DNA from: Lachnospiraceae bacterium
GTDB taxonomy: Bacteria > Bacillota > Clostridia > Lachnospirales > Lachnospiraceae
Length of the DNA stretch: 64,000 nt
Reading direction: 5' to 3'
Assembly (NCBI GenBank): GCA_021199235.1
Contig: JAJQIL010000072.1
Location: forward strand, 1,806-65,805
Positions 35,023 to 63,920 of this stretch are shown in pieces. How positions within the stretch are numbered: position 1 is the stretch's first letter; each line of letters starts with the position of its first letter. The translations under genes were made by a program, and so were the position numbers. The notes beneath the pieces are model-generated. The model saw nothing but the letters and a program-made list of their open reading frames with translations. It searched no databases and was not told the origin of the DNA.

Positions 35023-35106
35023 GGGGATTTGCGTAAACTTTCACAAATAATGAATGGGGATATGCGTTATATTTATAATTGTAAATACGGGGATTCGTGG
35101 TATAAT
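35023..35106 (+). repeat. Degenerate 33-bp-period array (GGGGAT x3) ending in an extended -10 box
   Basis: GGGGAT at 35023, 35056 and 35089; TG-N-TATAAT at 35098-35106. Confidence 0.75.
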
Positions 35107-35131
35107 ATGTTCTGAGGAAGGTGAAACAGAC

Positions 35132-36472
35132 ATGATCAAAACTGTTTTCAGAAGAAAAATATATGATGAAATGCTCGACTGGAAAGAAAGGCGCAGCGAC
35201 AAATATGCTCTTTTGATTAAAGGGGCAAGGCGTGTTGGAAAATCGACTATAGCGAAGGAATTCGCCAGAAAAAATTTCAGGTCATACATTTTGATAGACT
35301 TTGCGCATACCAGCAGAGAAATCATGGAATTGTTTGATGACACATATAATCTGGATTTTTTCTTTTTACAGCTACAGCAATTAACCGGCGTCAGGCTGTA
35401 TAAAAATGAGTCTGTAATTATATTTGATGAGGTCCAATTGCTCCCAAGGGCCAGGCAGGCTATTAAATATCTTGTGGCTGACGGAAGATATAAGTATATT
35501 GAAACAGGGTCACTTTTATCGATCAGGAAAAATACAAAGGATATATTAATTCCCAGTGAAGAGCACAGAATATCAATGTATCCTATGGACTTTGAAGAAT
35601 TTTTATGGGCCATAGGTGATGATATCACGGCGGACACGATCAGTCTTCTTTTAAAAAACAGAAGGGCGGCAGGTAATGCGCTGCACAGAAATCTGATGCG
35701 TATATTCAGATTGTATATGCTGATCGGCGGAATGCCTCAGGCTGTTGAATGCTATCTGGAACATAATAATCTGCAGGCGGTTGACGAAGTAAAAAGAGAA
35801 ATCGTAGATTTATATGAGGAAGATTTTACAAAGATAGACGGTACGGGACTGGCCGGCGATATCTATGATTCGATCCCGGCCAGTCTTACGGGTAATGCAT
35901 CCAGATATTTGTTATCAAACGCAAGAGAGGGCACACGTGCAGAGCAGGTACGTGGATTAATACCGGATATTCTAAGCACATATACGGTAAATATTGCTTA
36001 TCATGCCAATAATCCTGCTGTGGGGATGTCACTTGAAAAGGATGCGGGACGATATAAGCTGTTTACATCAGATGTGGGATTGTTTGTGACTCTTGCATTT
36101 AAGGATAAACAGTATACTGACAATATTATTTATAATAAGCTCCTTTCGGATAAGCTGGAAGCAAATTTGGAATATGTATATGAAAATGCTGTAGCACAGA
36201 TGCTGACAGCGAAGGGCAATCATCTTTTTTATTATACGATGGAGAGTGATACGTCAAATCATTTATATGAAATAGATTTTCTTCTCTCTGTGGGAAATAA
36301 AATTAATCCTGTGGAGGTAAAATCCGGTAACTACAGGAACCATAAATCCTTAGACGTTTTTTGCGATAAATATAGCAGTCGTATCAAAGACAGGTATATT
36401 GTCCATACGAAAGATTATAAGTGGGAGAATGGCATCCATTATTTGCCAATATATATGATCCCGTTTCTATAA
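35132..36472 (+). CDS. AAA_14 ATPase + DUF4143 protein
   Basis: GARRVGKST, IFDEVQ, ETGS, GGMP, EIDF...PVEVKSG, YLPIYM. Confidence 0.88.
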   Translation: MIKTVFRRKIYDEMLDWKERRSDKYALLIKGARRVGKSTIAKEFARKNFRSYILIDFAHTSREIMELFDDTYNLDFFFLQLQQLTGVRLYKNESVIIFDEVQLLPRARQAIKYLVADGRYKYIETGSLLSIRKNTKDILIPSEEHRISMYPMDFEEFLWAIGDDITADTISLLLKNRRAAGNALHRNLMRIFRLYMLIGGMPQAVECYLEHNNLQAVDEVKREIVDLYEEDFTKIDGTGLAGDIYDSIPASLTGNASRYLLSNAREGTRAEQVRGLIPDILSTYTVNIAYHANNPAVGMSLEKDAGRYKLFTSDVGLFVTLAFKDKQYTDNIIYNKLLSDKLEANLEYVYENAVAQMLTAKGNHLFYYTMESDTSNHLYEIDFLLSVGNKINPVEVKSGNYRNHKSLDVFCDKYSSRIKDRYIVHTKDYKWENGIHYLPIYMIPFL

Positions 36473-36574: not shown

Positions 36575-36777
36575 ATGGAGGAAACGACAATAGTATCAGG
36601 GAGCTGCGGGAAAGTACAGGCATGAACCGAAAGGAATTTTGCGAATATTTTCAAATCCCTTATAGAACAGTCACAGACTGGGAATTGGGCAACAGACACG
36701 CACCAGAGTACGTGATCCGGCTGCTGGCCTATTACATTCAAACGGAAAACATTCACAAGGAGGCAAGCAGGCAATGA
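36575..36777 (+). pseudogene. Small XRE-type HTH protein; 5' end out of frame (intact ORF only 36622-36777)
   Basis: IRELRESTGMNRKEFCEYFQIPYRTVTDWELGNRHAPEYV; the ATG at 36575 is in another frame. Confidence 0.65.
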
Positions 36778-37757
36778 GCCAATCCAATATTATCATGTAT
36801 ACAACGGAAGATGGTTTGACGAAGATAGAGGCCACTTTTGACGAGGATACGGTATGGCTTTCTATTGATCAGATGGCGGAATTGTTTCAACGAGATAAAT
36901 CAACCATTTCCCGGCATATTAAAAATATTTTTACTGAGGGTGAGCTTTTCAAACCGGCAGTTGTTGCAAAATTTGCAACAACTGCAACTGATGGTAAAAC
37001 CTATCAAGTTGAGTATTATAATCTCGATGTTATAATTTCTGTCGGTTATCGGGTGAAATCCCTGCGAGGGACACAATTCCGCATATGGGCGAGTGGTATC
37101 CTGAAAGAGTATATGAAAAAAGGATTTGCGCTGGACGATGATCGCTTGAAGCGATTGGGCGGTGGCAATTACTTTGATGAGTTGCTGGCCCGCATACGTG
37201 ACATTCGTTCTTCTGAAAAGGTTTTTTGGCGCAAGGTTCTGGAGATTTATGCTACCAGCATTGATTATGACCCAAAGGCAGAGTCTTCTATCTTATTCTT
37301 TAAGCAGGTGCAGAACAAAATGCATTGGGCAGCACATAAGCACACGGCGGCAGAAATTGTGTATGAACGAGCGGATGCAGATAAGGAAAATATGGGGCTG
37401 ACCTCCTGGTCAGGGAAACAGATTAGACGTGCAGATACGGAGATCGCCAGGAACTATCTGACACAGTCGGAACTGGATGCGTTGAATAAAATCGTGACGG
37501 CGTATCTGGATATTGCAGAAGTTCGTGCTTTGGAGCATGAACCCATGTATATGAAAGACTGGCTGGAAACGATTGATGATTATCTGAAAATGACACGGCG
37601 GGATATATTGTCTACAAAGGGACGTGTCACTCATCAGCAGGCAATCCAGAGAGCCCATGAGGAATATGCAAAATATCAGAAGAAGCAGGATGAGCAGCTG
37701 TCCCTTGTCGAACAGCATTTTATAGAGAGTATAAAAGAATTGGAGGCACTGGAATAA
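36774..37757 (+). CDS. Virulence RhuM family protein
   Basis: WLSIDQMAELF, YYNLDVIISVGYRVKSLRGTQFRIWA, LARIRDIRSSEK. Confidence 0.9.
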   Translation: MSQSNIIMYTTEDGLTKIEATFDEDTVWLSIDQMAELFQRDKSTISRHIKNIFTEGELFKPAVVAKFATTATDGKTYQVEYYNLDVIISVGYRVKSLRGTQFRIWASGILKEYMKKGFALDDDRLKRLGGGNYFDELLARIRDIRSSEKVFWRKVLEIYATSIDYDPKAESSILFFKQVQNKMHWAAHKHTAAEIVYERADADKENMGLTSWSGKQIRRADTEIARNYLTQSELDALNKIVTAYLDIAEVRALEHEPMYMKDWLETIDDYLKMTRRDILSTKGRVTHQQAIQRAHEEYAKYQKKQDEQLSLVEQHFIESIKELEALE

Positions 37758-37902: not shown

Positions 37903-38178
37903 ATATATCCTTCTTATGCCTGCTTTGCCTATGAACGTATGATGCCGAAATTAAATACGGAAAATCCAGAAGTGAGAGAGTATTTCTGCAAGGTTGGACA
38001 GTATTGGGTAAAAGAATTTGGCATTGATGGGTGGAGACTGGATGTTGCCAGCGAAATAGATGATGGATTTTGGAGAGCTTTTCGTAAATCGGTAAAATCA
38101 GTCAATCCGGATGCAATCCTGATTGGCGAGGTCTGGGAGAGTGCTGGTCACTGGCTGCAGGGGGATATTTTTGATTCC
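37903..38178 (+). pseudogene. Internal fragment of a GH13 (neopullulanase-like) enzyme
   Basis: MPKLNTENPEV...GIDGWRLDVASE...GEVW catalytic motifs; no N- or C-terminus. Confidence 0.85.
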
Positions 38179-38626
38179 ACATTATGATCTTGGATCTGCG
38201 GACCGGTTGAAAGGTGTGATGCAGAGCCTTCAGGAAGCCGGAATTCCGCTGGAGGATCAGTATATCTGGCTGGGAGAATCTACCCGGGCAGACGGGTATC
38301 GGATGTCCAGTCAGCTTTTGGAGGAACGAATGCTTCCGGAAGCGATAGTATGTGCCAATAACTACATAGCGCTTGGCTGTGTGGCAGCAATACAGGAGAG
38401 AAAAATGCGGATACCGGATGATATAGGCGTGATCGCGTTTGATGATTATCCTTTTTCGCAGATAATTGATCCGCCGCTGACGGTGGTAGACATTAATGTA
38501 CGCGATATGGGGGTACAGGCAGGCAAGTTTCTTGTCCAGATGATCCATAACCCGAATATGCAGATACAGACTTATGTTACCACGTCTAATTTACTTATTC
38601 GGCAATCGACAAGAGAGCAGCGGTAA
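38172..38626 (+). pseudogene. C-terminal fragment of a LacI-family regulator
   Basis: PEAIVCANNYIALG...IPDDIGVIAFDD...PPLTVV; no HTH. Confidence 0.85.
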
Positions 38627-38670
38627 CATACGTGTGATAGGATATCCATGTTGAAAAATGCGGCAATCTG

Positions 38671-38885
38671 GGCTTCGGTATCCATCAGGCCGCCGCGCGC
38701 ACAGTTGATCAGGATCACGCCGTCCTTCATTTTGGCGATGGTTTCCCTGTTTATCATATGGCGGCTCTGGTCGTTTAAGTTCAGATGGATGGTGATGATG
38801 TCGCATTCGCGATAGATGGTTTCCACATCTGTGTAGGTCAGCCAGTGGGATGCCTTTCCGGGATGCAGGTTATATCCGATCGTGC
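38671..38885 (-). pseudogene. Internal fragment of a D-2-hydroxyacid dehydrogenase
   Basis: CDIITIHLNLNDQSRHMIN...MKDGVILINCARGGL. Confidence 0.85.
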
Positions 38886-39397
38886 GGGTTCTGGCTGCCG
38901 CACCGGACGGGGAGGAACTGACGATAGAGATTGTTGAGAAAGGGCGGCTCTTTGGCGAATCCTCCTTTTTGAGCAAAAGTGTACGTCCGACTACTGTAAG
39001 AGCGGTCACGGAGGTGGACCTGATCTGCTGTACGATCGAACAACTGATTCCCTGCCTGTGCCGGAATCCGGAGATCCTGACGAAGGTGCTGCAGCATTGT
39101 TCAGCCACTATGAACCATCTTTCCTATGCGCTTCATTCCTGGCGCTTTCTGGATCGTTACCAGCGGGTTGCTTCCTTCCTGCTGGAATAGACGGAAACGG
39201 ATAATCCGGATAAGGAGATTACAGAGCAGTGTCTGCCGTATTCCCATGAGGAAATTGCCATGTGTCTTGGAATCGCCCGGCCGACAGTAAGCCAGGTGCT
39301 GAAAACTTTTGAGCGGAACGGATGGGCGCGATGCGCCTATCGAAAGGTGTATGTGCTGGACAGGGGAGCGTTGGCGGAAAGCGGGGGAATAAAATGA
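38882..39397 (+). pseudogene. Crp/Fnr regulator, 5'-truncated, with an internal TAG
   Basis: LFGESSFL...RPTTVRA; TAG at 39188-39190; in-frame continuation SHEEIAMCLGIARPTVSQVLK (HTH). Confidence 0.85.
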
Positions 39398-39555
39398 AGG
39401 ACACAAGGGAGATCATTATGGATTTCAACGGCATCGGCTGCGTATACACTGTTGCGGGAGGCAACCCAAAAGCGGGAACTGAAGCTAAAGCAAAGACAGG
39501 ACAGGCAGCTGTGAGTGTACGGAACAGCTCCCAAAAACGGACAGGAGGCGCTGTG

Positions 39556-40035
39556 ATGAAGAAAAAAGCGATTGTGGCAGGACATATCTGCCTGGATATT
39601 ACGCCGGTGTTTCCGGAACGTCCGGTAGAGAAGGTGAATGATCTTTTACAGCCGGGCAAACTGATCCATATGAATGAAGCCGACTGGTACGGGATTCTTG
39701 AGCGGGTGCTTCCCTATGTGGACTTTTTTGTGCCAAGCGTGGAAGAACTCATGTTTATGCTTGACCGGGAACGGTTTGAAGACCTGCAGAAGCGCGCTGC
39801 AGGCCGGGATATCACGGATATTCTTAATATCGAAAAGGATGTCCGGCCTCTGGCTGATACCAGTATCGCGGCTTTTCTGACAGCAGTCCTGCAGGGGGAG
39901 ACTCCGGAAACATCCATGCATCTGGCTGCGGCTGCCGGGGCCTGCTGTGTAAGCTCCTACGATGCGCTTGGCGGATTGAAAAGCTTTGATGAAATGAAAG
40001 ATAAAATTGCTCATAACTGGGCGAAGAATGACTAA
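39556..40035 (+). pseudogene. PfkB-family sugar kinase with two in-frame internal deletions
   Basis: AGHICLDIT start, VDFFVPSVEEL, DTSIAAFL; the GG..AN motif and the GAG of GAGD are absent. Confidence 0.75.
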
Positions 40036-40238
40036 GAACAGGATAAAATATTCTAAAAATATATTGAACATAGAGCAATCTTTGCCTATAATTCACTTTA
40101 AATGAAACCGGTGAACCGTTTTTTTGAACAGGCGTAGTCTGTCGGCTTACGTACTGATAAAGTGGAGAAAATGATGAGTGAAGAGATTCAGATGGGCAAA
40201 GATTTGATCATTACAGATGAGATGCGGGAAAGATTTTT

Positions 40239-43200
40239 TTGAATGAGGATCCGGAATCGGAGGAATCGCTGCGCATACCGGTACGATGGCGGCATTTATT
40301 CCCCGCTGCAGCGATCGAGCAGGCCACAGACGATGCCATGCAGTCAAGGATCAGTATTAAGCATGGCTGGATCGGACTGCATGCAGAATGTTCTTTGGAT
40401 GCGGCGGAGAAAAAGGCGGTGGGAATCTCGTCAAAAAGAAGGCTGTCTTATGACAGTCCTTATTACAGCTATTCGGGAGAGCCGTGTTTTTCGGTCTCAA
40501 TTGATAAATGGCCGTTTGATATCCATACGAAGCTGGAAGCGCAGCTTCTGCACTGTAACTGTCCGGAAGGGAAAAAGGGCAAATTGTGCTGCCATGAGGC
40601 GGCGCTTCTTTATTACATGGAACAGAAAAACGGCGGCCTTATTGTTGTGGAAGAGGACAGGTTTGCCGGCAGGGAACGGATTGGTGCCGTTAAGAGGAAA
40701 AAGAAGAACGAAAAACTGGCGCAGCTGCAGGAGCACTATGGTCTTACACCGTGTCCTGCCCTGGACTTCTTTGAGGGACGCAAGGATCCCGGCGGGATTG
40801 CCGTTTACGATATGAGGACTGCCCTGAAGGATTTTGTGACGGATCCGTATTCGATGCATATGGCAAAGGATATTCTGGAGAACCATCCGAATGCGGTTTC
40901 TCTTTACGCAAATGAAAAGAAAGACCGTGACGGTACACGGACATTTCAGGCAAAGCTCAATGATCAGGATATCGTGTCCGACTATTATTTTACGGCGGGG
41001 AAAGCCCGGCTTACGGGGAACAAACTGATTCTGGATGCCGAGGAAGGTTATCTTGACGGAGAGGACCGGTCCCGTTCGTACATGGATTTTGGTGAAGAAA
41101 TCAAAGCAGAGACGAACCATCTGAATATCAACGGCCTGATCCTGTGTAAACTTCTCTGGGATGAGACGGATAAGCTGGCGGAGAAGACCGTTGACCTCAC
41201 GGATTCGAAAGCCAGAGAATTTTTCAGCAGTCTGGAAAAGGCGAGCCGGGCAAAGATCCGGAAGACAGTCCGCACTGAACAGCAGAGAAAGAAAGCCGTC
41301 GAACTGTATCCCCGTATTATCATTGAGAAAGGGGAGGCAAAACTCAGCTTCCGGATCCAGAAAGAGGGCGGAAAGCTCATCGTAATCCGTAATGTCAGGG
41401 AACTGGTCGCGGCCTGCATCGGCCGATATACGCTTACCCTTTCAAAAACAGAGAGTATTGACTTTGGAGAATATGATTTCACGGATCACTCGGCCGGGCT
41501 TTTTGATTTTCTACAGAGGAAGGTCGGCGATGTCTCCGATATCAATATGCAGATTGAGGCGAGAAATGTGTTCTCCAGACACAGTGTCAGGACAATCAAT
41601 GTCACTTCGAACCTGGAGCTTAAGGGCGCGGTTCTGGATAATTTTTACGACGTCTGGGAAGGACAGACCGCGGAATATCAGGACAAGACAAACGGGGTGG
41701 CCAGCAGGGAGATTCCGGTGGCTCACAGAGATATCCGGCTTTCCCTCACCTGCGATCGCCTGTCGGACGCGAGAGGAGTATTCTCCGGGATTGCAGTGCA
41801 TGGCCTGATTCCCGTGCTGCTTGATGGCAGCGGGTCTCATCGTTATATGCTGAACGCGGACGGCCTTTCCCGGATTACAGAGAAGGAACAGGAGATTATC
41901 GAGCCGTTTGACGCTGTCGCGGATTCCTCCGGATATTTTCGGTTTCAGGTAGGCCTTCCGAATCTGCAGGAATTCTATTACCGTGTTGTGCCGGCTTTTT
42001 TGGAGAACCCGTCGGTTGATTTTACGGATAATTGCGAAAAGGAAGCGGAGGGGTATCTTCCTCCGGAGCCGCATTTTGATTTTTATCTCGATTGTGATAC
42101 ATCGGACATTTCGGCGATGACCGGATCTGATACAGAAGAAAGACGGAAGAGGCGGGAGCAGGTGTTTCATCTCCTGCGCTGTACGGGAAAGGTTCGGTAC
42201 AGGGAAAAGTGCCGGAAAAAACAGGCGGCTGCGGGAAGTACTGAAAATACAGAACTTACTGAATATATGGAAAGTGCTGAAACAGAATGCGCGGAAAAGG
42301 TTTATACGCTTTGCGTTTCAGATTCCAAAGACGGGTATCGGGACGTGGAACAGGAAAAGCGGGTTGCCGATGCGGTCAGTGCGCTGATGTATTACCTGAA
42401 GCCTGACGAGGATGGAGTTTTCTCAACGGTTCTTAATGATGAACAGCTTTTTCAGTTTCTGCAGTCCGGTATTGCGGTTCTGGAAGAGTATGGCACGGTG
42501 CACGGCTCCGAAGCGTTCCGGAAGTTTACGGTTGCGCCTGTCCCGAAAATGAAGGTCGGCGTTTCAGTGGAGAGCGGCATTCTTGACCTGTCATTGACTT
42601 CCTCCGGGATTACGGAAGAAGAGCTGCTGGAGGTACTGCAAAGCTATCGCGAGAAGAAACGGTTCCATGTGCTTTCATCAGGGAGTTTTCTGGATCTGGA
42701 AGAAGATGATCAGCTTTCCGAGATCAGCTTTTTTATGCAGGAACTGGATCTGAATCCGGAAGAAGTGATCCGGAAGAGTGCGAAAGTGCCGCTTTACCGC
42801 GCTATGTATATTGATAAACTTCTTGAAGAGCATGACGCGCTGTATTCCACAAGGGACCGGGTATATCGCGGTCTTGTCCGCAATTTTAAAACAATCCGGG
42901 ATTCCGAGAGCGAGCCGCCGGCGCAGCTTGCCGGAATCATGAGACCTTATCAGGTGCTGGGCTTCAAATGGATCCGGACTCTGGAGGAATCCGGGTTCGG
43001 CGGGATTCTGGCGGATGAGATGGGACTGGGGAAGACACTGCAGACAATTTCGGTTCTTCTGTATGATTACAATGAAAAGAAGCCGGGGACAGAGCATCCG
43101 TCTCTGGTAGTCTGCCCCGCGTCCCTTGTCTATAACTGGCAGGAGGAATTTGAAAAATTTGCACCGGATATCCGGGTGATGCCGGTGACCGGCGGCGCGG

Positions 43201-44330
43201 CGTCCAGGAAAAAAGCGTTTGCAGCATGGGATACCACACAGGTGTACATCATCTCCTACGATCTGCTGAAACGCAACATCGCGGAATTCTCCGGAAAGGA
43301 ATTCTTTTATGCAGTACTGGATGAAGCACAGGCTGTCAAAAATTCAGGCGCGGCCGTCTCAAAGGCCGTAAAGACACTGAACGCCGCACACCGCATTGCG
43401 CTGACCGGAACGCCGATTGAGAACCGTCTCTCGGAGCTTTGGAGTATTTTTGATTTTCTGATGCCTGGCTTTTTATATTCTCAAAAGGAATTTGAACAGC
43501 GCTTTGCGGTCCCTGTCACGAAGAATAAAGATCAGGAAGCAGTGGAGAAACTTAAAAAAATGACTTCTCCTTTCCTCATGAGAAGGCGGAAAGAGGACGT
43601 GCTAAAAGACCTGCCCGCGAAGCTGGAGGAAGTGCGCTATGTGCCGATTTCCGGAGAACAGCAGAAGCTCTATGACGCGCAGGTCCTGAAATTGAGAAAT
43701 TCAATCCTGGATGGAACCATGGAGTACGGTACAGGAAAAGTGAAGGTGCTCGCGGAGCTCACAAAGATCCGTGAAATCTGTTGCGACCCGTCGCTTCTCT
43801 ATGAAGACTACCACGAAGAGAGCGGGAAACGGGAGGCAGTTATGGGCCTGATCCGGCAGGCGATGGACGGCGGACACAGAATGCTCCTTTTCTCCCAGTT
43901 TACGTCGATGCTCGCGCTTCTTGAGAGGGACCTTAAGGCGGAAGGAATCCCATACTATATTCTGACCGGTGCTACGTCTAAGGAAAAACGGATACAGCTG
44001 GTGCACCAGTTTAATGAAGGGAACGTTCCGGTGTTTCTGATCTCACTCAAGGCGGGCGGCAATGGCCTGAACCTGACGGGAGCGGATATCGTGATCCACT
44101 ACGATCCGTGGTGGAACTTTGCCGCGCAGAATCAGGCGACAGACCGGGCTCACCGGATCGGCCAGACCAGGCAGGTCACCGTGTACCGGCTGATCCTGAA
44201 AGGGACGATAGAAGAACGGATTCTGAAACTGCAGGAAGAGAAAAAGGATCTCGCGGATCAGGTCCTTTCCGGGGAAGGCGCGTCGCTTGCAAGTCTGTCA
44301 CAGGAGGAGCTGCTGGAATTGCTTGGGTAA
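40239..44330 (+). CDS. SWIM zinc finger-SNF2 family helicase/ATPase
   Basis: CNCP...CCHEAA; ILADEMGLGKT; LDEAQ; LTGTPIEN; FSQF; SLKAGG; QATDRAHRIGQ. Confidence 0.92.
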   Translation: MNEDPESEESLRIPVRWRHLFPAAAIEQATDDAMQSRISIKHGWIGLHAECSLDAAEKKAVGISSKRRLSYDSPYYSYSGEPCFSVSIDKWPFDIHTKLEAQLLHCNCPEGKKGKLCCHEAALLYYMEQKNGGLIVVEEDRFAGRERIGAVKRKKKNEKLAQLQEHYGLTPCPALDFFEGRKDPGGIAVYDMRTALKDFVTDPYSMHMAKDILENHPNAVSLYANEKKDRDGTRTFQAKLNDQDIVSDYYFTAGKARLTGNKLILDAEEGYLDGEDRSRSYMDFGEEIKAETNHLNINGLILCKLLWDETDKLAEKTVDLTDSKAREFFSSLEKASRAKIRKTVRTEQQRKKAVELYPRIIIEKGEAKLSFRIQKEGGKLIVIRNVRELVAACIGRYTLTLSKTESIDFGEYDFTDHSAGLFDFLQRKVGDVSDINMQIEARNVFSRHSVRTINVTSNLELKGAVLDNFYDVWEGQTAEYQDKTNGVASREIPVAHRDIRLSLTCDRLSDARGVFSGIAVHGLIPVLLDGSGSHRYMLNADGLSRITEKEQEIIEPFDAVADSSGYFRFQVGLPNLQEFYYRVVPAFLENPSVDFTDNCEKEAEGYLPPEPHFDFYLDCDTSDISAMTGSDTEERRKRREQVFHLLRCTGKVRYREKCRKKQAAAGSTENTELTEYMESAETECAEKVYTLCVSDSKDGYRDVEQEKRVADAVSALMYYLKPDEDGVFSTVLNDEQLFQFLQSGIAVLEEYGTVHGSEAFRKFTVAPVPKMKVGVSVESGILDLSLTSSGITEEELLEVLQSYREKKRFHVLSSGSFLDLEEDDQLSEISFFMQELDLNPEEVIRKSAKVPLYRAMYIDKLLEEHDALYSTRDRVYRGLVRNFKTIRDSESEPPAQLAGIMRPYQVLGFKWIRTLEESGFGGILADEMGLGKTLQTISVLLYDYNEKKPGTEHPSLVVCPASLVYNWQEEFEKFAPDIRVMPVTGGAASRKKAFAAWDTTQVYIISYDLLKRNIAEFSGKEFFYAVLDEAQAVKNSGAAVSKAVKTLNAAHRIALTGTPIENRLSELWSIFDFLMPGFLYSQKEFEQRFAVPVTKNKDQEAVEKLKKMTSPFLMRRRKEDVLKDLPAKLEEVRYVPISGEQQKLYDAQVLKLRNSILDGTMEYGTGKVKVLAELTKIREICCDPSLLYEDYHEESGKREAVMGLIRQAMDGGHRMLLFSQFTSMLALLERDLKAEGIPYYILTGATSKEKRIQLVHQFNEGNVPVFLISLKAGGNGLNLTGADIVIHYDPWWNFAAQNQATDRAHRIGQTRQVTVYRLILKGTIEERILKLQEEKKDLADQVLSGEGASLASLSQEELLELLG

Positions 44331-44384
44331 GTATAAAGAAAGGGGAAGACTACCGTCTGAACCATGGCGGTATTCGTATGAAAC

Positions 44385-46925
44385 GTGAACGCAAAGCAGA
44401 CATTAAAAAAATATTTCGGCTATGATACGTTCAAACCCGGTCAGGAAGAAATCATTGACGCTGTTCTGTCCGGAAATGATGTACTGGCAGTGATGCCGAC
44501 CGGAGCGGGGAAATCAATCTGTTATCAGGTGCCGGCCTTGCTGTTTCCGGGGATTACCGTTGTCATTTCGCCGCTGATTTCCCTTATGCAGGATCAGGTC
44601 AAGGCGTTAAATGAGGCGGGAATCCATGCGGGCTACATCAATTCTTCTTTGACAGACGCCCAGATCGCAAAGGTCTATGCGAGAGCGGCGGAGGGTGCGT
44701 ATAAAATCCTGTATGTTGCGCCGGAGCGGCTTGAAAGCCAGGGCTTCGTGGAGTTTACGGAACGGATTCACATATCCATGGTGACAGTTGACGAAGCGCA
44801 CTGTATTTCCCAGTGGGGGCAGGATTTCAGACCCAGTTACCTGAAAATCATAGATTTTATTGATCGTCTGCGGGAAAGACCGATTGTAAGCGCATTTACG
44901 GCAACCGCTACAGAAGAGGTTAAAACGGATATTTCCTGCGTACTTAAGCTGCAGGATCCTAAAATCGTAGTCACCGGCTTTGACCGTGAAAATCTCTATT
45001 TCAGAGTCGAGACAACAGGAAAGAAGGATGATTTTGTACTTGAATACATAAGGAAGAATCCCAACGAAAGCGGTATCGTATACTGTGCCACAAGGAAGAA
45101 CGTGGATAAACTGTATGAACAATTATCCGTTGACGGAATCCCGGCGACAAAATACCACGCCGGAATGAACAATGAGGACCGGAAGGTAAGCCAGGACGAT
45201 TTCATTTATGACAGATCCCTGGTGATCGTTGCCACAAACGCGTTCGGCATGGGCATCGACAAATCCAACGTAAGGTTTGTGATTCACTATAATATGCCTC
45301 AGAGCATGGAAAACTATTATCAGGAAGCCGGCCGTGCGGGCAGAGACGGCGAGCCGTCTCAGTGTATTCTGCTGTTTTCTCCGCAGGATATTATGATAAA
45401 TAAATTTCTTCTGGAGCATAAAGACTTTACGGATGTTCCGGAAGAAAACATTGAATCAATCAGACAGCACGATGCAAGAAGACTCCGGAGCATGGAAGAA
45501 TATTGCAGGACGACGGGATGTCTGCGCAATCACATTCTTGCGTACTTTGGCGAGAAAAGGAGTGAGCCATGTAATTCCTGCGGCAATTGTCACAGAGAAT
45601 ATACAGAGATTGATATGACAGAGGATGCGAAGCAGGTCATCAATTGTGTCTGGGAGACAAAAGGAAGATATGGCCTCAGTATCATCCTTGGTACACTTCT
45701 GGGTGCAAACAGAGCCAGATTAAAAGAAGTCGGGGCTGTTGATTATAAGACATACGGGGCACTGAAATACCGCTCTGAATCAGAACTCCGGCTGCTGATC
45801 AGTCAGCTTATCATGGACGGATATCTCCGTCAGACCGCTGATAGATATAGTGTGATTCGCCTGGGAAATATAGCTCCTCTTAAGGAGGAGGGGACGCGCA
45901 TTCTGGTTCGAATCCACGATAACGAAAAGCAGGAAAGGCCGGAGCGTCTGGTCAAATCCAGCGGCAGGAGGAGCACGGATTCTCTCACAAAGGCAGGCTA
46001 TGAATTATTTGAAGTTTTCCGACAACTGCGCCTGAAAATTGCCAGAGAAGAAGGAACGCCGCCGTATATTATCTTCAGTGATAAAACACTGATCGATATG
46101 AGTGTAAAAATACCGCAGGACAAAGCAACTATGCTGAATGTATCCGGTGTAGGCGAGGCCAAATACGAGAAATATGGCAGCAGGTTTATAGAGGCAATCA
46201 CAGCATTTTTGGAGGAACATCCGGATGCCGTCACCAGCATAGAGGCTGATGACGGTGCGTGCGGAAATGTTTCCAAAGAAAAAGGCGTGCCTGGTAAAAA
46301 GGTAAAAAAGCAAAAAAGATCATTTTACCTTAACCCGGAAGATGGGGATAAGTATGAATTCAAGAACCTTTCTCTTTTGACTGAAATTCGGGATGAGTTG
46401 AACCGAATTACATCTGCGGACAATGTAAAGCATATATTTGGGACAGATCTGTTCCGGCTGCTGACAGCGATGGGTTATGTGAAAGAACAGGAGGTGGAAG
46501 GCAAATTAGTTCAGACACAAACAGAACTGGGCCTGTCCAAGGGGATTGCTGTCACTGAAAAAATAAGTAAAGCGGGAAATGTGTACACAGTTTTGTTATA
46601 TCCACCAGAGGTTCAGAAAGAGATTGTGGAGTTCTATATTGAAATGGGAAATCAGGCAGAATCTGACGGATCTGGCAAAGATGCCGAAGGTGGCGAATAT
46701 GTCGAAAATGCAGGATCAGGTGATGCCGGAAAGACGGCCAGAGTGGAATATAACCGCAAAATGAACAGACCGGATGGAGCCGGGAAGTCCTGGACCGAGG
46801 AAGAGGATAAACAGCTTGATGATGAGTATCAGTCCGGCATGACAATTTCCGGGATCGCAAGGATTCATGACCGCACAAATGGAGCGATACGCGCCAGACT
46901 GAAAAAACATGGGCTTATAGAATAG
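44385..46925 (+). CDS. recQ: ATP-dependent DNA helicase RecQ with a C-terminal extension
   Basis: PTGAGKS, DEAHCISQWGQDFRPSY, QEAGRAGRDG, Zn cysteines, RQC, HRDC (PPYIIFSDKTL). Confidence 0.93.
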   Translation: MNAKQTLKKYFGYDTFKPGQEEIIDAVLSGNDVLAVMPTGAGKSICYQVPALLFPGITVVISPLISLMQDQVKALNEAGIHAGYINSSLTDAQIAKVYARAAEGAYKILYVAPERLESQGFVEFTERIHISMVTVDEAHCISQWGQDFRPSYLKIIDFIDRLRERPIVSAFTATATEEVKTDISCVLKLQDPKIVVTGFDRENLYFRVETTGKKDDFVLEYIRKNPNESGIVYCATRKNVDKLYEQLSVDGIPATKYHAGMNNEDRKVSQDDFIYDRSLVIVATNAFGMGIDKSNVRFVIHYNMPQSMENYYQEAGRAGRDGEPSQCILLFSPQDIMINKFLLEHKDFTDVPEENIESIRQHDARRLRSMEEYCRTTGCLRNHILAYFGEKRSEPCNSCGNCHREYTEIDMTEDAKQVINCVWETKGRYGLSIILGTLLGANRARLKEVGAVDYKTYGALKYRSESELRLLISQLIMDGYLRQTADRYSVIRLGNIAPLKEEGTRILVRIHDNEKQERPERLVKSSGRRSTDSLTKAGYELFEVFRQLRLKIAREEGTPPYIIFSDKTLIDMSVKIPQDKATMLNVSGVGEAKYEKYGSRFIEAITAFLEEHPDAVTSIEADDGACGNVSKEKGVPGKKVKKQKRSFYLNPEDGDKYEFKNLSLLTEIRDELNRITSADNVKHIFGTDLFRLLTAMGYVKEQEVEGKLVQTQTELGLSKGIAVTEKISKAGNVYTVLLYPPEVQKEIVEFYIEMGNQAESDGSGKDAEGGEYVENAGSGDAGKTARVEYNRKMNRPDGAGKSWTEEEDKQLDDEYQSGMTISGIARIHDRTNGAIRARLKKHGLIE

Positions 46926-46939
46926 ATATTTTCTTAATA

Positions 46940-46970
46940 ATGGTCTGGTTCAATTTGAGCCAGACCCAAA
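46940..46970. repeat. Family-3 palindrome
   Basis: TGGTCTGGTTCAA-T-TTGAGCCAGACC; near-identical copy at 60880. Confidence 0.8.
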
Positions 46971-46987
46971 TTTGTGGCTTCTCCCTA

Positions 46988-47286
46988 TCAATAAATCAAT
47001 GATAAGGCTGGAAAAATCTGTTACACTAAGGATCAATACAACGGATAAACACAGCGGGGATGCTGTGGCAGAGGCAATCGAGTCGATACATCAGTCTTCT
47101 GCGGCGCATCTGTTTTACGATAAGGAAAGCTGCGCAATATAAAATCGCTGCGCGATTGTATATCTCGTACGAAGTGCGGGATGCCCACGCCCCACGATCG
47201 GAGATTGGGGGCATACCCGGCGAGGGGCGCGGCCTTCGTCCATACTCGCTGCACGAGTACGGACATGTAATGAGCAGGCACTTCGA
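46988..47286 (+). pseudogene. Internally deleted duplicate of 48985-50187
   Basis: High similarity to 48985-49059 joined at GGATG to 50027-50187. Confidence 0.85.
47124..47267 (+). mobile_element. Family-1 element copy B with a 68-bp nested insert, flanked by TAA/TAA
   Basis: Near-identical to copy C except for an extra hairpin block; TAA at 47121-47123 and 47268-47270. Confidence 0.8.
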
Positions 47287-47357
47287 TTTTTGAATCTTAC
47301 GCCCAATGTCTGTGCAGTCTCAGTCTATATAGAGCCAAAATTCCTGGAATCACACCA

Positions 47358-47493
47358 ATAATCATGTCTGGGTGTGATTAAACGACCACAATAATCTGGA
47401 ATATGTGCATTTTTAGTGGAATAATAATCTAAAAAAAGTGCGAAAATATCGAAATGATAATCTTGCATTTGTGCAAATTCTCATGTATAATCC
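47358..47493 (+). repeat. Degenerate 33-bp-period array ATAATC-N8-GTG overlapping the promoter
   Basis: ATAATC at 47358, 47391, 47424 and 47457 (exact 33), then 47487 (30); GTG at offset +14 in four units. Confidence 0.85.
47463..47491 (+). promoter_or_regulatory. Sigma-A-like promoter
   Basis: TTGCAT-17 bp-TATAAT. Confidence 0.65.
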
Positions 47494-47572
47494 CCACAGT
47501 TAATATAATAGTCGGCCGCTATGCAAACAGTTAACCTGCACGCAGAAATAAGGGCCGATTCATTTATCTGAA

Positions 47573-48934
47573 ATGGAGAAGCTTATGCGGAGAAAAATAT
47601 ACGATACATTACTCGAATGGAAACACCGTTCCGGACAGACCGCGCTGTTGATCGACGGAGCAAGGCGGGTCGGAAAGAGCTACATTGCCGAAAAGTTTGC
47701 CAGGGAGAATTATAAATCCTATATCCTGATTGATTTCAACCGCGCAAGCCGTCAGGTGCAGGAGCTGTTTGAAAATTATCTGGATGATCTGGACACATTT
47801 TTTCTGTATCTGTCAGGCTATTATAATGTACGTCTTTATCAGGGAGAGACGCTGATCATATTTGACGAGGTGCAGATGTTCCCGCGGGCGAGAGGAGCCA
47901 TCAAATATCTGGTAGCGGACGGCAGATATGCCTATCTGGAAACAGGTTCTCTTATGTCGATACGGAAAAACGTTCGGGACATTGTAATCCCTTCCGAGGA
48001 GGAACATGTCTATATGTATCCCATGGATTTTGAGGAATTTCTGTGGGCCATGGGAAATGAGACGCTGATGCCCCTGATTCGCTCCTGTTATGAGAAAAAG
48101 CGTCCGATGGGGCAGGCGATGCACCGGAAAGCGATGGATTATTTCCGGCAGTATCTGATTGTCGGCGGGATGCCGCAGGCAGTGGAAGCCTATCAGGATA
48201 AAAGGGATTTCACCGAAGTAGACCGCATAAAGAGAGGAATTCTCACACTTTATCGGGAAGACATCCGCAAGCATTCCGCCGGAAATGAGTTGGAGGTCGA
48301 GGCTATTTTTGATCTGATACCGGCGCAGCTGTCCCGGCATGAGAAAAAGTTCCGCCTGAAGGACATCCGATCGGGGGCGAGAACAAGGCAATACGAGCAG
48401 CCTTTCTTCTGGCTGGCAGATGCCATGATCGTAAATAACTGCTACAATTGTTCCGAGCCGAACGTCGGACTGAAAATGAATATGGATCGGAAAACCATGA
48501 AGTGTTATCTGGCCGACACAGGTCTGCTGATCAGCCACGCCTTTGACGAGAAGGGCATTGTTTCGGAGGAAATCTATCGAAAGCTGTTATTTGACAAGCT
48601 TACGGTCAATGAAGGCATGCTGATGGAAAACATCGTGGCGCAGATGCTGGTGGCTTCCGGGCACAAACTCTACTTTTTCTCAAAATGCTCGCGCACAGAT
48701 GCCAGCGCAAGGATGGAGATTGACTTTCTGATCGCAAAAAGCAGAATCACCAGTGCACATAACATTTCACCAATCGAAGTAAAATCCGGTGAGCGGTATA
48801 CGTTATCTTCTCTGAAAAAGTTCCGGATGAAGTATGGCGGGTATATGGATATGCCGGTCGTGCTGCACACGAAGGACTATAAGGAAGAAAACGGAATCCT
48901 GTATCTGCCGATTTATATGACTCCGCTGCTGTGA
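47573..48934 (+). CDS. AAA_14 ATPase + DUF4143 protein (paralogue of 35132)
   Basis: GARRVGKS, IFDEVQ, ETGS, GGMP, EIDF...PIEVKSG, YLPIYM. Confidence 0.88.
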   Translation: MEKLMRRKIYDTLLEWKHRSGQTALLIDGARRVGKSYIAEKFARENYKSYILIDFNRASRQVQELFENYLDDLDTFFLYLSGYYNVRLYQGETLIIFDEVQMFPRARGAIKYLVADGRYAYLETGSLMSIRKNVRDIVIPSEEEHVYMYPMDFEEFLWAMGNETLMPLIRSCYEKKRPMGQAMHRKAMDYFRQYLIVGGMPQAVEAYQDKRDFTEVDRIKRGILTLYREDIRKHSAGNELEVEAIFDLIPAQLSRHEKKFRLKDIRSGARTRQYEQPFFWLADAMIVNNCYNCSEPNVGLKMNMDRKTMKCYLADTGLLISHAFDEKGIVSEEIYRKLLFDKLTVNEGMLMENIVAQMLVASGHKLYFFSKCSRTDASARMEIDFLIAKSRITSAHNISPIEVKSGERYTLSSLKKFRMKYGGYMDMPVVLHTKDYKEENGILYLPIYMTPLL

Positions 48935-48995
48935 TGGGTAAAAGGGCGTCACTGCGATAGTCACGCATTTACCAACTTGCCCGGTCAATAAATCA

Positions 48996-50499
48996 ATGAC
49001 AAGACTGAAAAAATCTGTTACATTAAAGACCAGTACAACGGATGAACACAGCGGGGATGGCTCTTATAAGACGCATCTCAATCAGTATCATGTTATCTAT
49101 ATAGATATTATCTGGTTTATATCGCAGCTTCTCAGTCAGGGCAAAAGCATAGACCAGATCGTGCTGCTGATGCAGAGTCAGGTGATCGAAGAGCTTGCGA
49201 GTGATTATCCGCAGGTAAAAGGCGGGACAGACCTTCCGACTGCGCTTTTTCAGATCGCGGAGTCTACTGGGCGGCAGTTCGTTTTTCTGATTGATGAGTG
49301 GGATGCGATTTTTCGAGAAGCAGCTGATAATAGTCTTGTGAAAGAGCAGTATTTGAATCTGCTTCGGGGCTTATTCAAAAGTCCTGTGACCAGCAGGGCT
49401 ATTGCTGTGGCATATATGACTGGCATCCTTCCAATTAAAAAATATGGAAAACAGTCGGCCCTGACCGATGTTCTGGAGCTTACTATGGTCAATCCTGGGA
49501 ATCTGGCCTGTTATGTAGGCTTTACAGAAGATGAAGTGAAGGCTCTCTGTAAAGAACATGAGTTGAATTATGAGGATATGAAACGCTGGTATGATGGATA
49601 TTCGTTTGATGACAGCGGATCTGTCTATAATCCGAATTCTGTCATGGAGGCAATCTCCATGCGTAATTACGATACGTATTGGGCGAATACGGAAACATAT
49701 GAGTCTCTGAAATCTTATATAGAGGAAGACTTTGACGGAATTCAGAGTGCTCTGAAAAGTATGCTGAGCGGACAGGATGTTCCTGTCAATATACGGAAAT
49801 TTCAAAACGACATGAGCATTCTGAAAAACAGGGATGATGTTTTTACTTTGCTTATCCATCTGGGATACCTGGCATATGACAGGAATACAAAGATGGTACG
49901 CATTCCAAATGAGGAAATCCGACAGGAATTTATTACCGCTATCGAAGACAGTGAGAAACACGCAGAGCTCGCAAGACTGATTGTACGGTCCAGACAACTT
50001 CTAAAGGATACACTGGCAATGCGCGAGGATGCTGTGGCAGAAGCAATCGAGTCGGTACATCAGTCTTCGGCTGCACCTCTGTTTTACAAAAAGGAAAGCC
50101 GCGCAATATAAAATCGCTGCGCGATTGGCGCGGCCTTCGTCCATACTCGCTGCACGAGTACGGACATGTAATGAGCAGGCACTTCGAAGCGTGGTTCGCA
50201 CGGCATATATGGTTTGCATAGATGAGTATGCGGAAATTCAGGAGCTTCCTACCGGCCATGGATATGCAGATCTGGTTTATCTGCCCCGGGCAGGCTCGCC
50301 CTTACCGGTACTTCTGATTGAACTGAAATGGAATGAATCAGATGACGGTGCGATTGCACAGATTAAAGATCGTAAATATCCGAAACAGTTGGAAAACCTG
50401 CGGCATGATATTCTTCTGGTTGGGATTAATTATTCAGAAAAAGATCCGAATAAAAAGCATACCTGTAAAATAGAAAAGCAGACGATCCAAAACAGGTAA
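48996..50499 (+). pseudogene. AAA-ATPase-like/PD-(D/E)XK nuclease protein, N-truncated and frameshifted by an insertion
   Basis: FVFLIDEWDA, MTGILPI, GYADLVYLP...LIELKWN; Walker A absent; split at 50090. Confidence 0.85.
50093..50168 (+). mobile_element. Family-1 element copy C, inserted in a coding sequence
   Basis: Removing 50090-50168 (79 bp) restores PLFY-NNEQALRSVV. Confidence 0.88.
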
Positions 50500-50524
50500 A
50501 AGCAGACAGGCGAACAAGCTCTCT

Positions 50525-63742: not shown

Positions 63743-63759
63743 GTCGTCAGTTTAAGAGT

Positions 63760-63889
63760 GGTTCTTCGGGGCGGGGTGTGATTCCCCACCGGCGGTATAG
63801 TCCGCGACCCGCGCAAGCGGCTGATCCGGTGACGTTTTTTGACAGAATGAATTCCGGAACCGACAGTATAGTCTGGATGAGAGAAGAAT
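63760..63889 (+). ncRNA. FMN riboswitch (RFN element)
   Basis: TCTTCGGGGCGGGGTGTGATTCCCCACCGGCGGTATAGTCCGCGA...GATCCGGTG...ATTCCGGAACCGACAGTATAGTCTGGATGAGAGAAGA. Confidence 0.95.
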
Positions 63890-63920
63890 ACAAAGCGATA
63901 TTTTATATCGTGCGATTCTG

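Follow-up and report, generated by a model that had tools for sequence, protein, structure and literature searches.

What is a phased array of short direct repeats doing over the promoter of a gene whose product resembles an ATPase-nuclease? The question is raised by a 64,000-nucleotide stretch of a Lachnospiraceae genome (the window), in which two genes for proteins with AAA_14 and DUF4143 domains, 48% identical to each other, each stand behind such an array. The original prediction, made from the letters of the DNA, had described four units upstream of the second gene with ATAATC at offset 0, GTG at offset +14, and an exact spacing of 33 bp. It had proposed that array and protein form a cognate module, working either through cooperative autoregulatory binding or with a short repeat RNA as partner. 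The features of both loci are collected in Table 1.

Table 1. Features of the two array-bearing loci, in positions of the 64,000-nucleotide window
Feature	Position	Strand	Details
First-paralogue array	35023..35100	+	GGGGAT(T/A)TGCGT-type boxes at 35023, 35056, and 35089; 33-bp steps
First AAA_14 + DUF4143 paralogue	35132..36472 (ORF 35054-36472)	+	446 amino acids from the likely start ATG 35132
Array + promoter + gene block	47289..48979	+	98.2% identical to congeneric genome G010; unrelated sequence on both sides
9-bp perfect inverted repeat	47348..47379	.	AATCACACC (47348-47356)-N14-GGTGTGATT (47371-47379); overlaps box 1
Box 1	47358..47376	+	ATAATC-ATGTCTGG-GTG-TG; GTG at 47372; flanks ATAATC and GTG kept, center diverged
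Box 2	47391..47409	+	ATAATC-TGGAATAT-GTG-CA; GTG at 47405; exactly 33 bp past box 1
Box 3	47424..47442	+	ATAATC-TAAAAAAA-GTG-CG; GTG at 47438; exactly 33 bp past box 2
Box 4	47457..47475	+	ATAATC-TTGCATTT-GTG-CA; GTG at 47471; best match to the clade consensus AAATCTTGATTTSGTGYA among the units
Putative -35, TTGCAT	47463-47468	+	Within box 4; placed by its 17-bp spacing to TATAAT
Extended -10	47484..47491	+	TGTATAAT, perfect; contains the fifth ATAATC; identical in G010; presumed promoter
Second AAA_14 + DUF4143 gene (PADLOC PDC-S01)	47573..48934	+	Identified by Pfam and PADLOC

A direct reading of the sequence and a motif script agreed on the layout of the second gene's array, with ATAATC recurring in exact 33-bp steps and GTG at offset +14 in all four units. 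In units 2 to 4 the GTG is extended to GTGC. In the whole 64 kb of the window there are just 24 copies of ATAATC. When the window was searched for 6-mers repeated at equal spacing (12 to 70 bp) in three or more terms, only four places were found. Two of these are coding tandem repeats (17739 and 58883). The remaining pair, at 35023 and 47358, are the 33-bp arrays, confirming that each paralogue has an array with a motif of its own (GGGGAT versus ATAATC). Four-term 6-mer progressions appeared in 0 of 200 local shuffles, and three-term progressions appeared at a mean of 0.34 per shuffle.

The array runs directly into what appears to be the promoter of the gene. The fifth copy of ATAATC (47487 to 47492), located 30 bp and not 33 bp past the copy in box 4, had been read as the -10 box; it falls inside a perfect extended -10 element, so that reading is borne out as far as the putative promoter is concerned. 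This promoter is absent from the list returned by a simple promoter scan because its -35 element is weak. No terminator was found between the array and the gene. Homologues share the consensus N terminus MKRKIY, and a GGAG at 47575 to 47578 precedes the ATG at 47585, so that this ATG is probably where the second gene truly starts. The first paralogue is arranged comparably, in that its box 3 fills the -35/-10 spacer and abuts an extended -10 element, TGGTATAAT (35099 to 35107). The presumed leader, from the -10 element to the start codon, contains the octamer ACAGTTAA twice (47496 to 47503 and 47527 to 47534), with a spacing of 31 bp; the pair is identical in G010 and may be due to chance. The perfect 9-bp inverted repeat that had been pointed out is present and overlaps box 1, but shuffles give about 4.6 such repeats per window by chance. 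It was consequently given no weight and was rejected as a separate operator.

The periodicity proved to be conserved among homologues. A scan using one genome per species yielded 80 loci whose products are 49 to 70% identical to the window protein, from Lachnospiraceae, Oscillospiraceae, Bacteroidales, Spirochaetes, Kiritimatiellae, Lentisphaeria, Bifidobacterium, Flexilinea, Succinivibrionaceae, Desulfovibrio, and others. With an array defined as an exact 5-mer progression of at least three terms at 32 to 34 bp, 58 of 78 loci, from at least eight phyla, had an array within the 330 bp upstream of the gene (42 at 33 bp, 15 at 34 bp, and 1 at 32 bp). Progressions of this spacing were found at 0 of 78 loci in the coding region, 0 of 78 in shuffled upstream sequence, 1 of 68 downstream of the stop codon, and 0 of 70 in the control taken 700 bp further upstream. 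Several of the homologue loci scored as negative carry imperfect or two-unit arrays. The array is a real, nonrandom, family-wide trait, and its occurrence together with the gene across phyla argues for a host-independent, self-contained circuit.

The core of each unit is a nonpalindromic box of about 17 bp, for which the clade of the window gene has the GTG-anchored consensus AAATCTYG-WWWW-SGTGYAA. When the units within each of 38 arrays were compared, identity was at least 0.7 at positions -14 to +2 relative to GTG and only 0.25 to 0.35, the random level, at positions +7 to +16. Conservation of the boxes beside spacers at the random level indicates that the boxes are maintained and rules out recent duplication or slippage. 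The AATC...GTG box lies on the coding strand of the gene in 46 of 46 anchored arrays. Its most constant parts, AATC and GTG, are 8 bp apart, or about one helical turn, which suggests that the box is read by two-point contact.

Measured against these relatives, the window array is the second weakest of the 39 arrays compared. Its ATAATC flank is perfect, and identity within the array is 0.62 for the boxes and 0.32 for the spacers, but the central 8-mers of its four units have a pairwise identity of 0.33, at the random level, versus a median of 0.92 in the 38 related arrays, and resemblance to the consensus is confined to box 4. The earlier statement that the rest of the unit varies is therefore correct for the window array but atypical of the family. 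This could mean that recognition by the protein depends mainly on the flanks or, alternatively, that units 1 to 3 are weak or decaying sites. In G010 the GTG of box 4 is changed to GTA, so selection on the four units may be relaxed.

Box sequence follows the phylogeny of the linked protein. Class 1 boxes (AATC...GTG; period, 33 bp) belong to the clade of the second window gene, class 2 boxes read (C)TTGCnTTTCGTGCA (period, 33 bp), and class 3 boxes read YTGCGYAYTRT (period, 34 bp); the first window paralogue forms a long branch beside the class 3 clade. In a tree of 77 proteins, the three classes fell into clades with support values of 95 to 99, and 0 of 200 label shuffles clustered as well. 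Finer variants mark subclades, with CTTAGGAAATGTG, CTCAAAAAGGTG, and CTCGTTTTCGTG in one each. Such tracking could also arise from simple linkage between array and gene. Taken together, the retention of the periodicity among homologues, the agreement of box type with protein clade, and the conservation of the boxes relative to random spacers lend support to the proposed cognate array-ATPase module.

The same pattern recurs among the paralogues of a single genome. The 3.47-Mb genome has 26 DUF4143 matches, which the first window paralogue raises to 27. For 12 of 15 close paralogues the best upstream periodicity is 32 to 34 bp, each with a private box; these boxes include GGTTGGAAAAACAC, CTTGGAAAAATGACAA, GAAAAANCGGACA (four units), GGGGATTTTCGGCA, TATTGAAATAATCAT (four units), TGCCTTTTCG, and AAAGTCCCTCATTTTTTT. 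Most of the other 33-bp arrays inspected genome-wide lie within long reading frames. A distant paralogue (G000:C11, locus L006) has four units of GCCAA...GGAAAAA at a 23-bp period about 210 to 225 bp upstream of the gene, and array period seems to be subfamily specific. An orphan array on the minus strand (G000:C2:50974-51106) consists of three 33-bp-phased units of AAGTTTTGAAGAAA directly 5' of a gene for a metallo-beta-lactamase (MBL)-fold protein. No homologue of DUF4143 lies close to it, and the array could be a target in trans or the relic of a lost gene.

Viral sequences were also probed with boxes of different types. The clade box gave one independent match, the TTGCnTTTCGTG box found an orphan pair as well as one array accompanied by its gene, and a Bacteroidales-type box gave no match in the viral collection. 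The contig classed as viral with an array and gene (L117, 2872 to 2917, minus strand) has three units of TTGCTTTTTCGTG followed by a DUF4143 gene whose product is 64% identical to the paralogue on contig C79; array and gene thus also travel on viral or proviral DNA. In two related viral contigs (L107, 11128 to 11175, minus strand; L109, 7043 to 7090, plus strand), two clade-type boxes (AAATCTCGAAAAGGTG and AAATCTCGATTTGGTG) lie 33 bp apart, immediately 3' of a strong TTGACA-17-TATAAT promoter and 5' of a NifS-like gene. The 103-kb phage record among them lacks a DUF4143 gene. By a rough estimate, about 0.06 such box pairs would be expected by chance.

The proteins themselves were examined by profile and fold searches. 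Pfam places AAA_14 and then DUF4143, both above cutoff, in both window genes, and the PADLOC HMM for PDC-S01 matches both at full length (E = 3e-117, residues 5 to 450, for the second gene and E = 7e-100 for the first). AAA_14 and DUF4143 were the only Pfam matches, with none to a Rep family or to Cdc6/ORC; no NCBIfam name was matched, and no sequence relative was found in the PDB. The sequence contains an EIDFL...PIEVKSG motif, and DUF4143 is listed as a PD-(D/E)XK domain (PMC3424549). An AF2 model of the second-gene protein, built from a 77-sequence alignment (pLDDT, 87.8), comprises an AAA+ domain (residues 1 to 160), a lid (165 to 234), a winged helix (239 to 313, with its third helix at 271 to 283 and its wing at 287 to 313), and a PD-(D/E)XK domain (347 to 453). 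The best PDB folds found for this model by Foldseek were ORC4/5, Cdc6, archaeal Orc1 on DNA (2v1u and 2qby), Avs3, Apaf-1, clamp loaders, MuB, and MalT (8bob). Foldseek probabilities were high (about 1 for ORC4/5, Cdc6, 2v1u, and 2qby), but TM scores were low, at 0.23 to 0.35 overall and 0.23 to 0.30 for these four. The protein models as an AAA+ ATPase with a winged helix and a C-terminal PD-(D/E)XK nuclease domain, with ORC/Cdc6 and STAND proteins as the nearest folds.

The position of the array relative to the promoter was compared across hosts. The distance from the last GTG to the ATG has a median of 41 nt (interquartile range, 24 to 59 nt). The last box in Firmicutes either lies over a TTGCnT -35 element located 17 bp before TATAAT or is fused to an extended -10 element (GTGTATAAT). 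In Bacteroidales, the fusion is between the TAnnTTTG -7 element and the GTG of unit 1 or 2, and one or two boxes lie between the start site and the ribosome-binding site. The array therefore overlaps the promoter whichever promoter type the host uses. A constant array structure combined with a host-dependent promoter register fits repression by occlusion or roadblock better than it fits activation; the Firmicutes and Bacteroidales layouts both suit repression and have no single activator geometry in common.

We consider it reasonably probable that the array is a cis-acting self-operator, to which the encoded protein binds cooperatively and thereby represses its own gene. The encoded protein is taken as the binder because no other clade-specific factor accompanies the array in every case; we infer likewise that binding is cooperative and ATP dependent and that its outcome is repression. 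In such a mechanism, each protomer would read one asymmetric bipartite box (AATC-N8-GTG in the window clade, with halves about one helical turn apart), and three or four protomers, probably in the presence of ATP, would assemble head to tail on boxes that recur every three helical turns. The resulting complex would cover the promoter, with box 4 over the -35 element and just 5' of the extended -10 element, and would limit expression of the gene. Since each paralogue has its own box, the approximately 27 copies in the genome would be regulated independently.

Other explanations of the array were weighed against autorepression. The one that we take most seriously, while still judging it unlikely, is that the protein does bind the array but that regulation is secondary, the boxes being a nucleation or parking site for assembly of an ORC/STAND-like ATPase-nuclease. 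On self DNA, the nuclease could be kept inactive by such a site; alternatively, the site could set the specificity of the nuclease for similar phased arrays on foreign DNA, such as iterons and origins. A predicted nuclease domain fused to an initiator-like AAA+ domain and winged helix would suit such a role, as would the roughly 27 paralogues with private boxes, the paired boxes in two related viral contigs (the 103-kb phage having no DUF4143 gene), the orphan pair in another viral contig, and the orphan array upstream of the MBL-fold gene. The viral matches are anecdotal, however, given that one other probe found none and with the rough chance expectation stated above, and the constant overlap with the promoter is more simply explained by regulation. 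In addition, one PDC-S01 representative did not protect Escherichia coli B from T4, T5, or T7 (10.1101/2024.09.26.614923). We see little likelihood that the boxes serve some other regulator, be it a factor of the host or another of the paralogues. Proteins of different clades are linked to different boxes, array and gene remain together in at least eight phyla that differ in their host factors, and within one genome every paralogue has a box of its own. What speaks for such a regulator is the mutual information between protein columns and box positions, which did not single out the winged helix (no enrichment; P = 0.18) in a small sample of 46 arrays subject to phylogenetic confounding.

Two further readings were considered. 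If the array were a decaying by-product of tandem duplication or promoter shuffling without present function, the poor match among the centers of the window units would be expected, as would the greater divergence from G010 of the array region (6 differences in 133 bp) than of the whole module (30 in 1,691 bp). Neutral decay cannot explain three or four units at 32 to 34 bp throughout the family, boxes that are 0.7 to 0.98 identical beside random spacers, or a fixed orientation, and we regard it as highly improbable. The idea that the array is transcribed as a repeat RNA partner, serving either as an antitoxin like ToxI or as a guide to the ATPase-nuclease, draws on the placement of tandem units directly 5' of a putatively toxic nuclease gene; it appears to us the most remote of the explanations considered, and this half of the original prediction is disfavored. 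Only about 17 of the 33 bp are conserved, with random spacers in between. The best promoter lies after the array in the window and inside the array in Bacteroidales, so most units would probably not be cotranscribed with the gene, and no terminator was seen between array and gene. Rfam gave no match in 46900 to 47650 at E ≤ 1, the predicted RNA fold was no better than that of shuffled sequences (z-score, -1.19), and by Pfam and PADLOC the protein is not an endoribonuclease of the ToxN/AbiE (AbiEii) type.

Autorepression from a phased self-operator has partial parallels in several known systems. Archaeal Orc1/Cdc6 proteins have origin recognition boxes next to their own genes, and DnaA has DnaA boxes at the dnaA promoter. 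As in these cases, an AAA+ plus winged-helix protein is found in the window beside arrayed asymmetric boxes at its own gene; the fold matches include ORC, Cdc6, and Orc1-DNA structures, and the bipartite box would fit a two-point contact like that of Orc1. The window system differs from these initiators in having a C-terminal PD-(D/E)XK nuclease, about 27 copies per genome, and strict 33-bp phasing over only 3 or 4 boxes, and the TM scores are only 0.23 to 0.35. Neither an AT-rich unwinding element nor DnaA boxes nor an origin context was seen in the sequence of the locus. The iterons of plasmids such as P1, F, and R6K are phased direct repeats with a period of about 22 bp on the promoter of an autoregulated rep gene. 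They resemble the window array in that phased direct repeats adjoin or overlap the promoter of the gene for the binding protein (here a proposed one), with autorepression as the result (here likewise proposed). Unlike iterons, the window array has a period of 33 bp, is chromosomal (syntenic in the congeneric genome), and is not associated with a Rep-family initiator, and no replication function is indicated.

MalT and other STAND/LAL regulators are ATP-dependent oligomeric NTPases that bind cooperatively to several nonpalindromic promoter boxes. The arrayed asymmetric boxes at a promoter are a shared trait, and MalT (8bob) is among the fold matches; the window protein differs in having a winged helix rather than a LuxR-type helix-turn-helix and in possessing a nuclease domain. 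Moreover, it is proposed to act on its own promoter, in a layout that suits a repressor rather than an activator. In ToxIN, a type III toxin-antitoxin system, the tandem repeats of the RNA antitoxin are located directly 5' of the toxin gene. The window likewise has short tandem units directly 5' of a potentially toxic gene, but here the units are not near identical over their full length, the best promoter lies 3' of the array rather than 5' of it, no intervening terminator was seen, and the protein is unrelated.

The window genes agree with the PDC-S01 definition (AAA_14 plus DUF4143; COG1373) in their full-length HMM match and in architecture. That definition concerns the protein alone, and the window loci add the upstream array. 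PDC-S01 is one of 145 untested phage defense candidates obtained by guilt-by-embedding (10.1101/2024.01.29.577857). Among defense calls in prokaryotes it is reported as the fourth most common (PMC12988326), and in rumen genomes no other single locus is reported to be more frequent (PMC13356809). The array had not been recognized as described when it was first noticed, and the literature searched on DUF4143, PDC-S01, and COG1373 likewise yielded no description of upstream repeats or of a cis element. Counting the family among "defense systems" rests on no functional evidence; the family could instead consist of ATPase-nucleases that bind DNA sequence-specifically and regulate themselves. A conserved, clade-specific phased array provides each PDC-S01 subfamily with a candidate natural ligand and a readable signal of specificity. 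Since this array is attached to the gene, the family becomes directly testable by binding and reporter approaches. A bolder proposal, for which we would claim no better than a slim chance, is that PDC-S01 proteins are sequence-programmable ORC/STAND-like ATPase-nucleases whose natural ligand is a phased direct repeat. The copy at the promoter of the gene itself would then serve autoinhibitory self-docking, matching foreign arrays (iterons, origins, or phage promoters) would nucleate the same oligomer and lead to cutting, and the approximately 27 private-box paralogues would constitute a repertoire of array sensors.

The surroundings of the second gene were compared with the congeneric genome. 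The sharp ends of the array-promoter-gene block at 47289 and 48979 had been considered as the ends of a mobile cassette, an idea that was dropped when whole-contig comparison revealed synteny, with extra flanking DNA in the window. Relative to G010 contig C96, the extra DNA consists of RecQ and a gene remnant on the left (44426 to 47288) and an AAA-ATPase_like/PDDEXK_9 gene on the right (48980 to 50505). The segment from 38181 to 44425, which includes an SNF2 helicase gene, is syntenic with G010 at 95 to 98% identity. The block is flanked by two copies of another element (46983 to 47286 and 48977 to 50187), of which the full copy, 48985 to 50187, is the AAA-ATPase_like gene. The left copy is reduced to the first ~75 bp (46988 to 47062), the last ~105 bp (47054 to 47158), and 67 bp of trailing sequence (47220 to 47286), and these pieces are 89 to 97% identical to the full copy. 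Matches to AAA-ATPase_like (PF09820; 48996 to 50111) and PDDEXK_9 (PF08011; 50029 to 50499) fall in two overlapping frames, suggesting that the gene is a frameshifted pseudogene belonging to a second family of ATPase-nucleases.

Other features of the neighborhood were recorded as well. A GC-rich segment of about 100 to 135 bp in the AT-rich spacer (47137 to 47271) matches at least 10 other contigs of the genome at 82 to 96% identity, as a dispersed REP- or MITE-like repeat. The first paralogue is closely followed by a RhuM-family gene (36774 to 37757), and pieces of LacI-type and PfkB-type genes are found at 38123 to 40035. With its RhuM, SNF2 helicase, and RecQ genes and its gene fragments, the region looks like an eroded variable island. 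Further along the window, an FMN riboswitch is located at 63758 to 63892 (Rfam RF00050; 100 bits).
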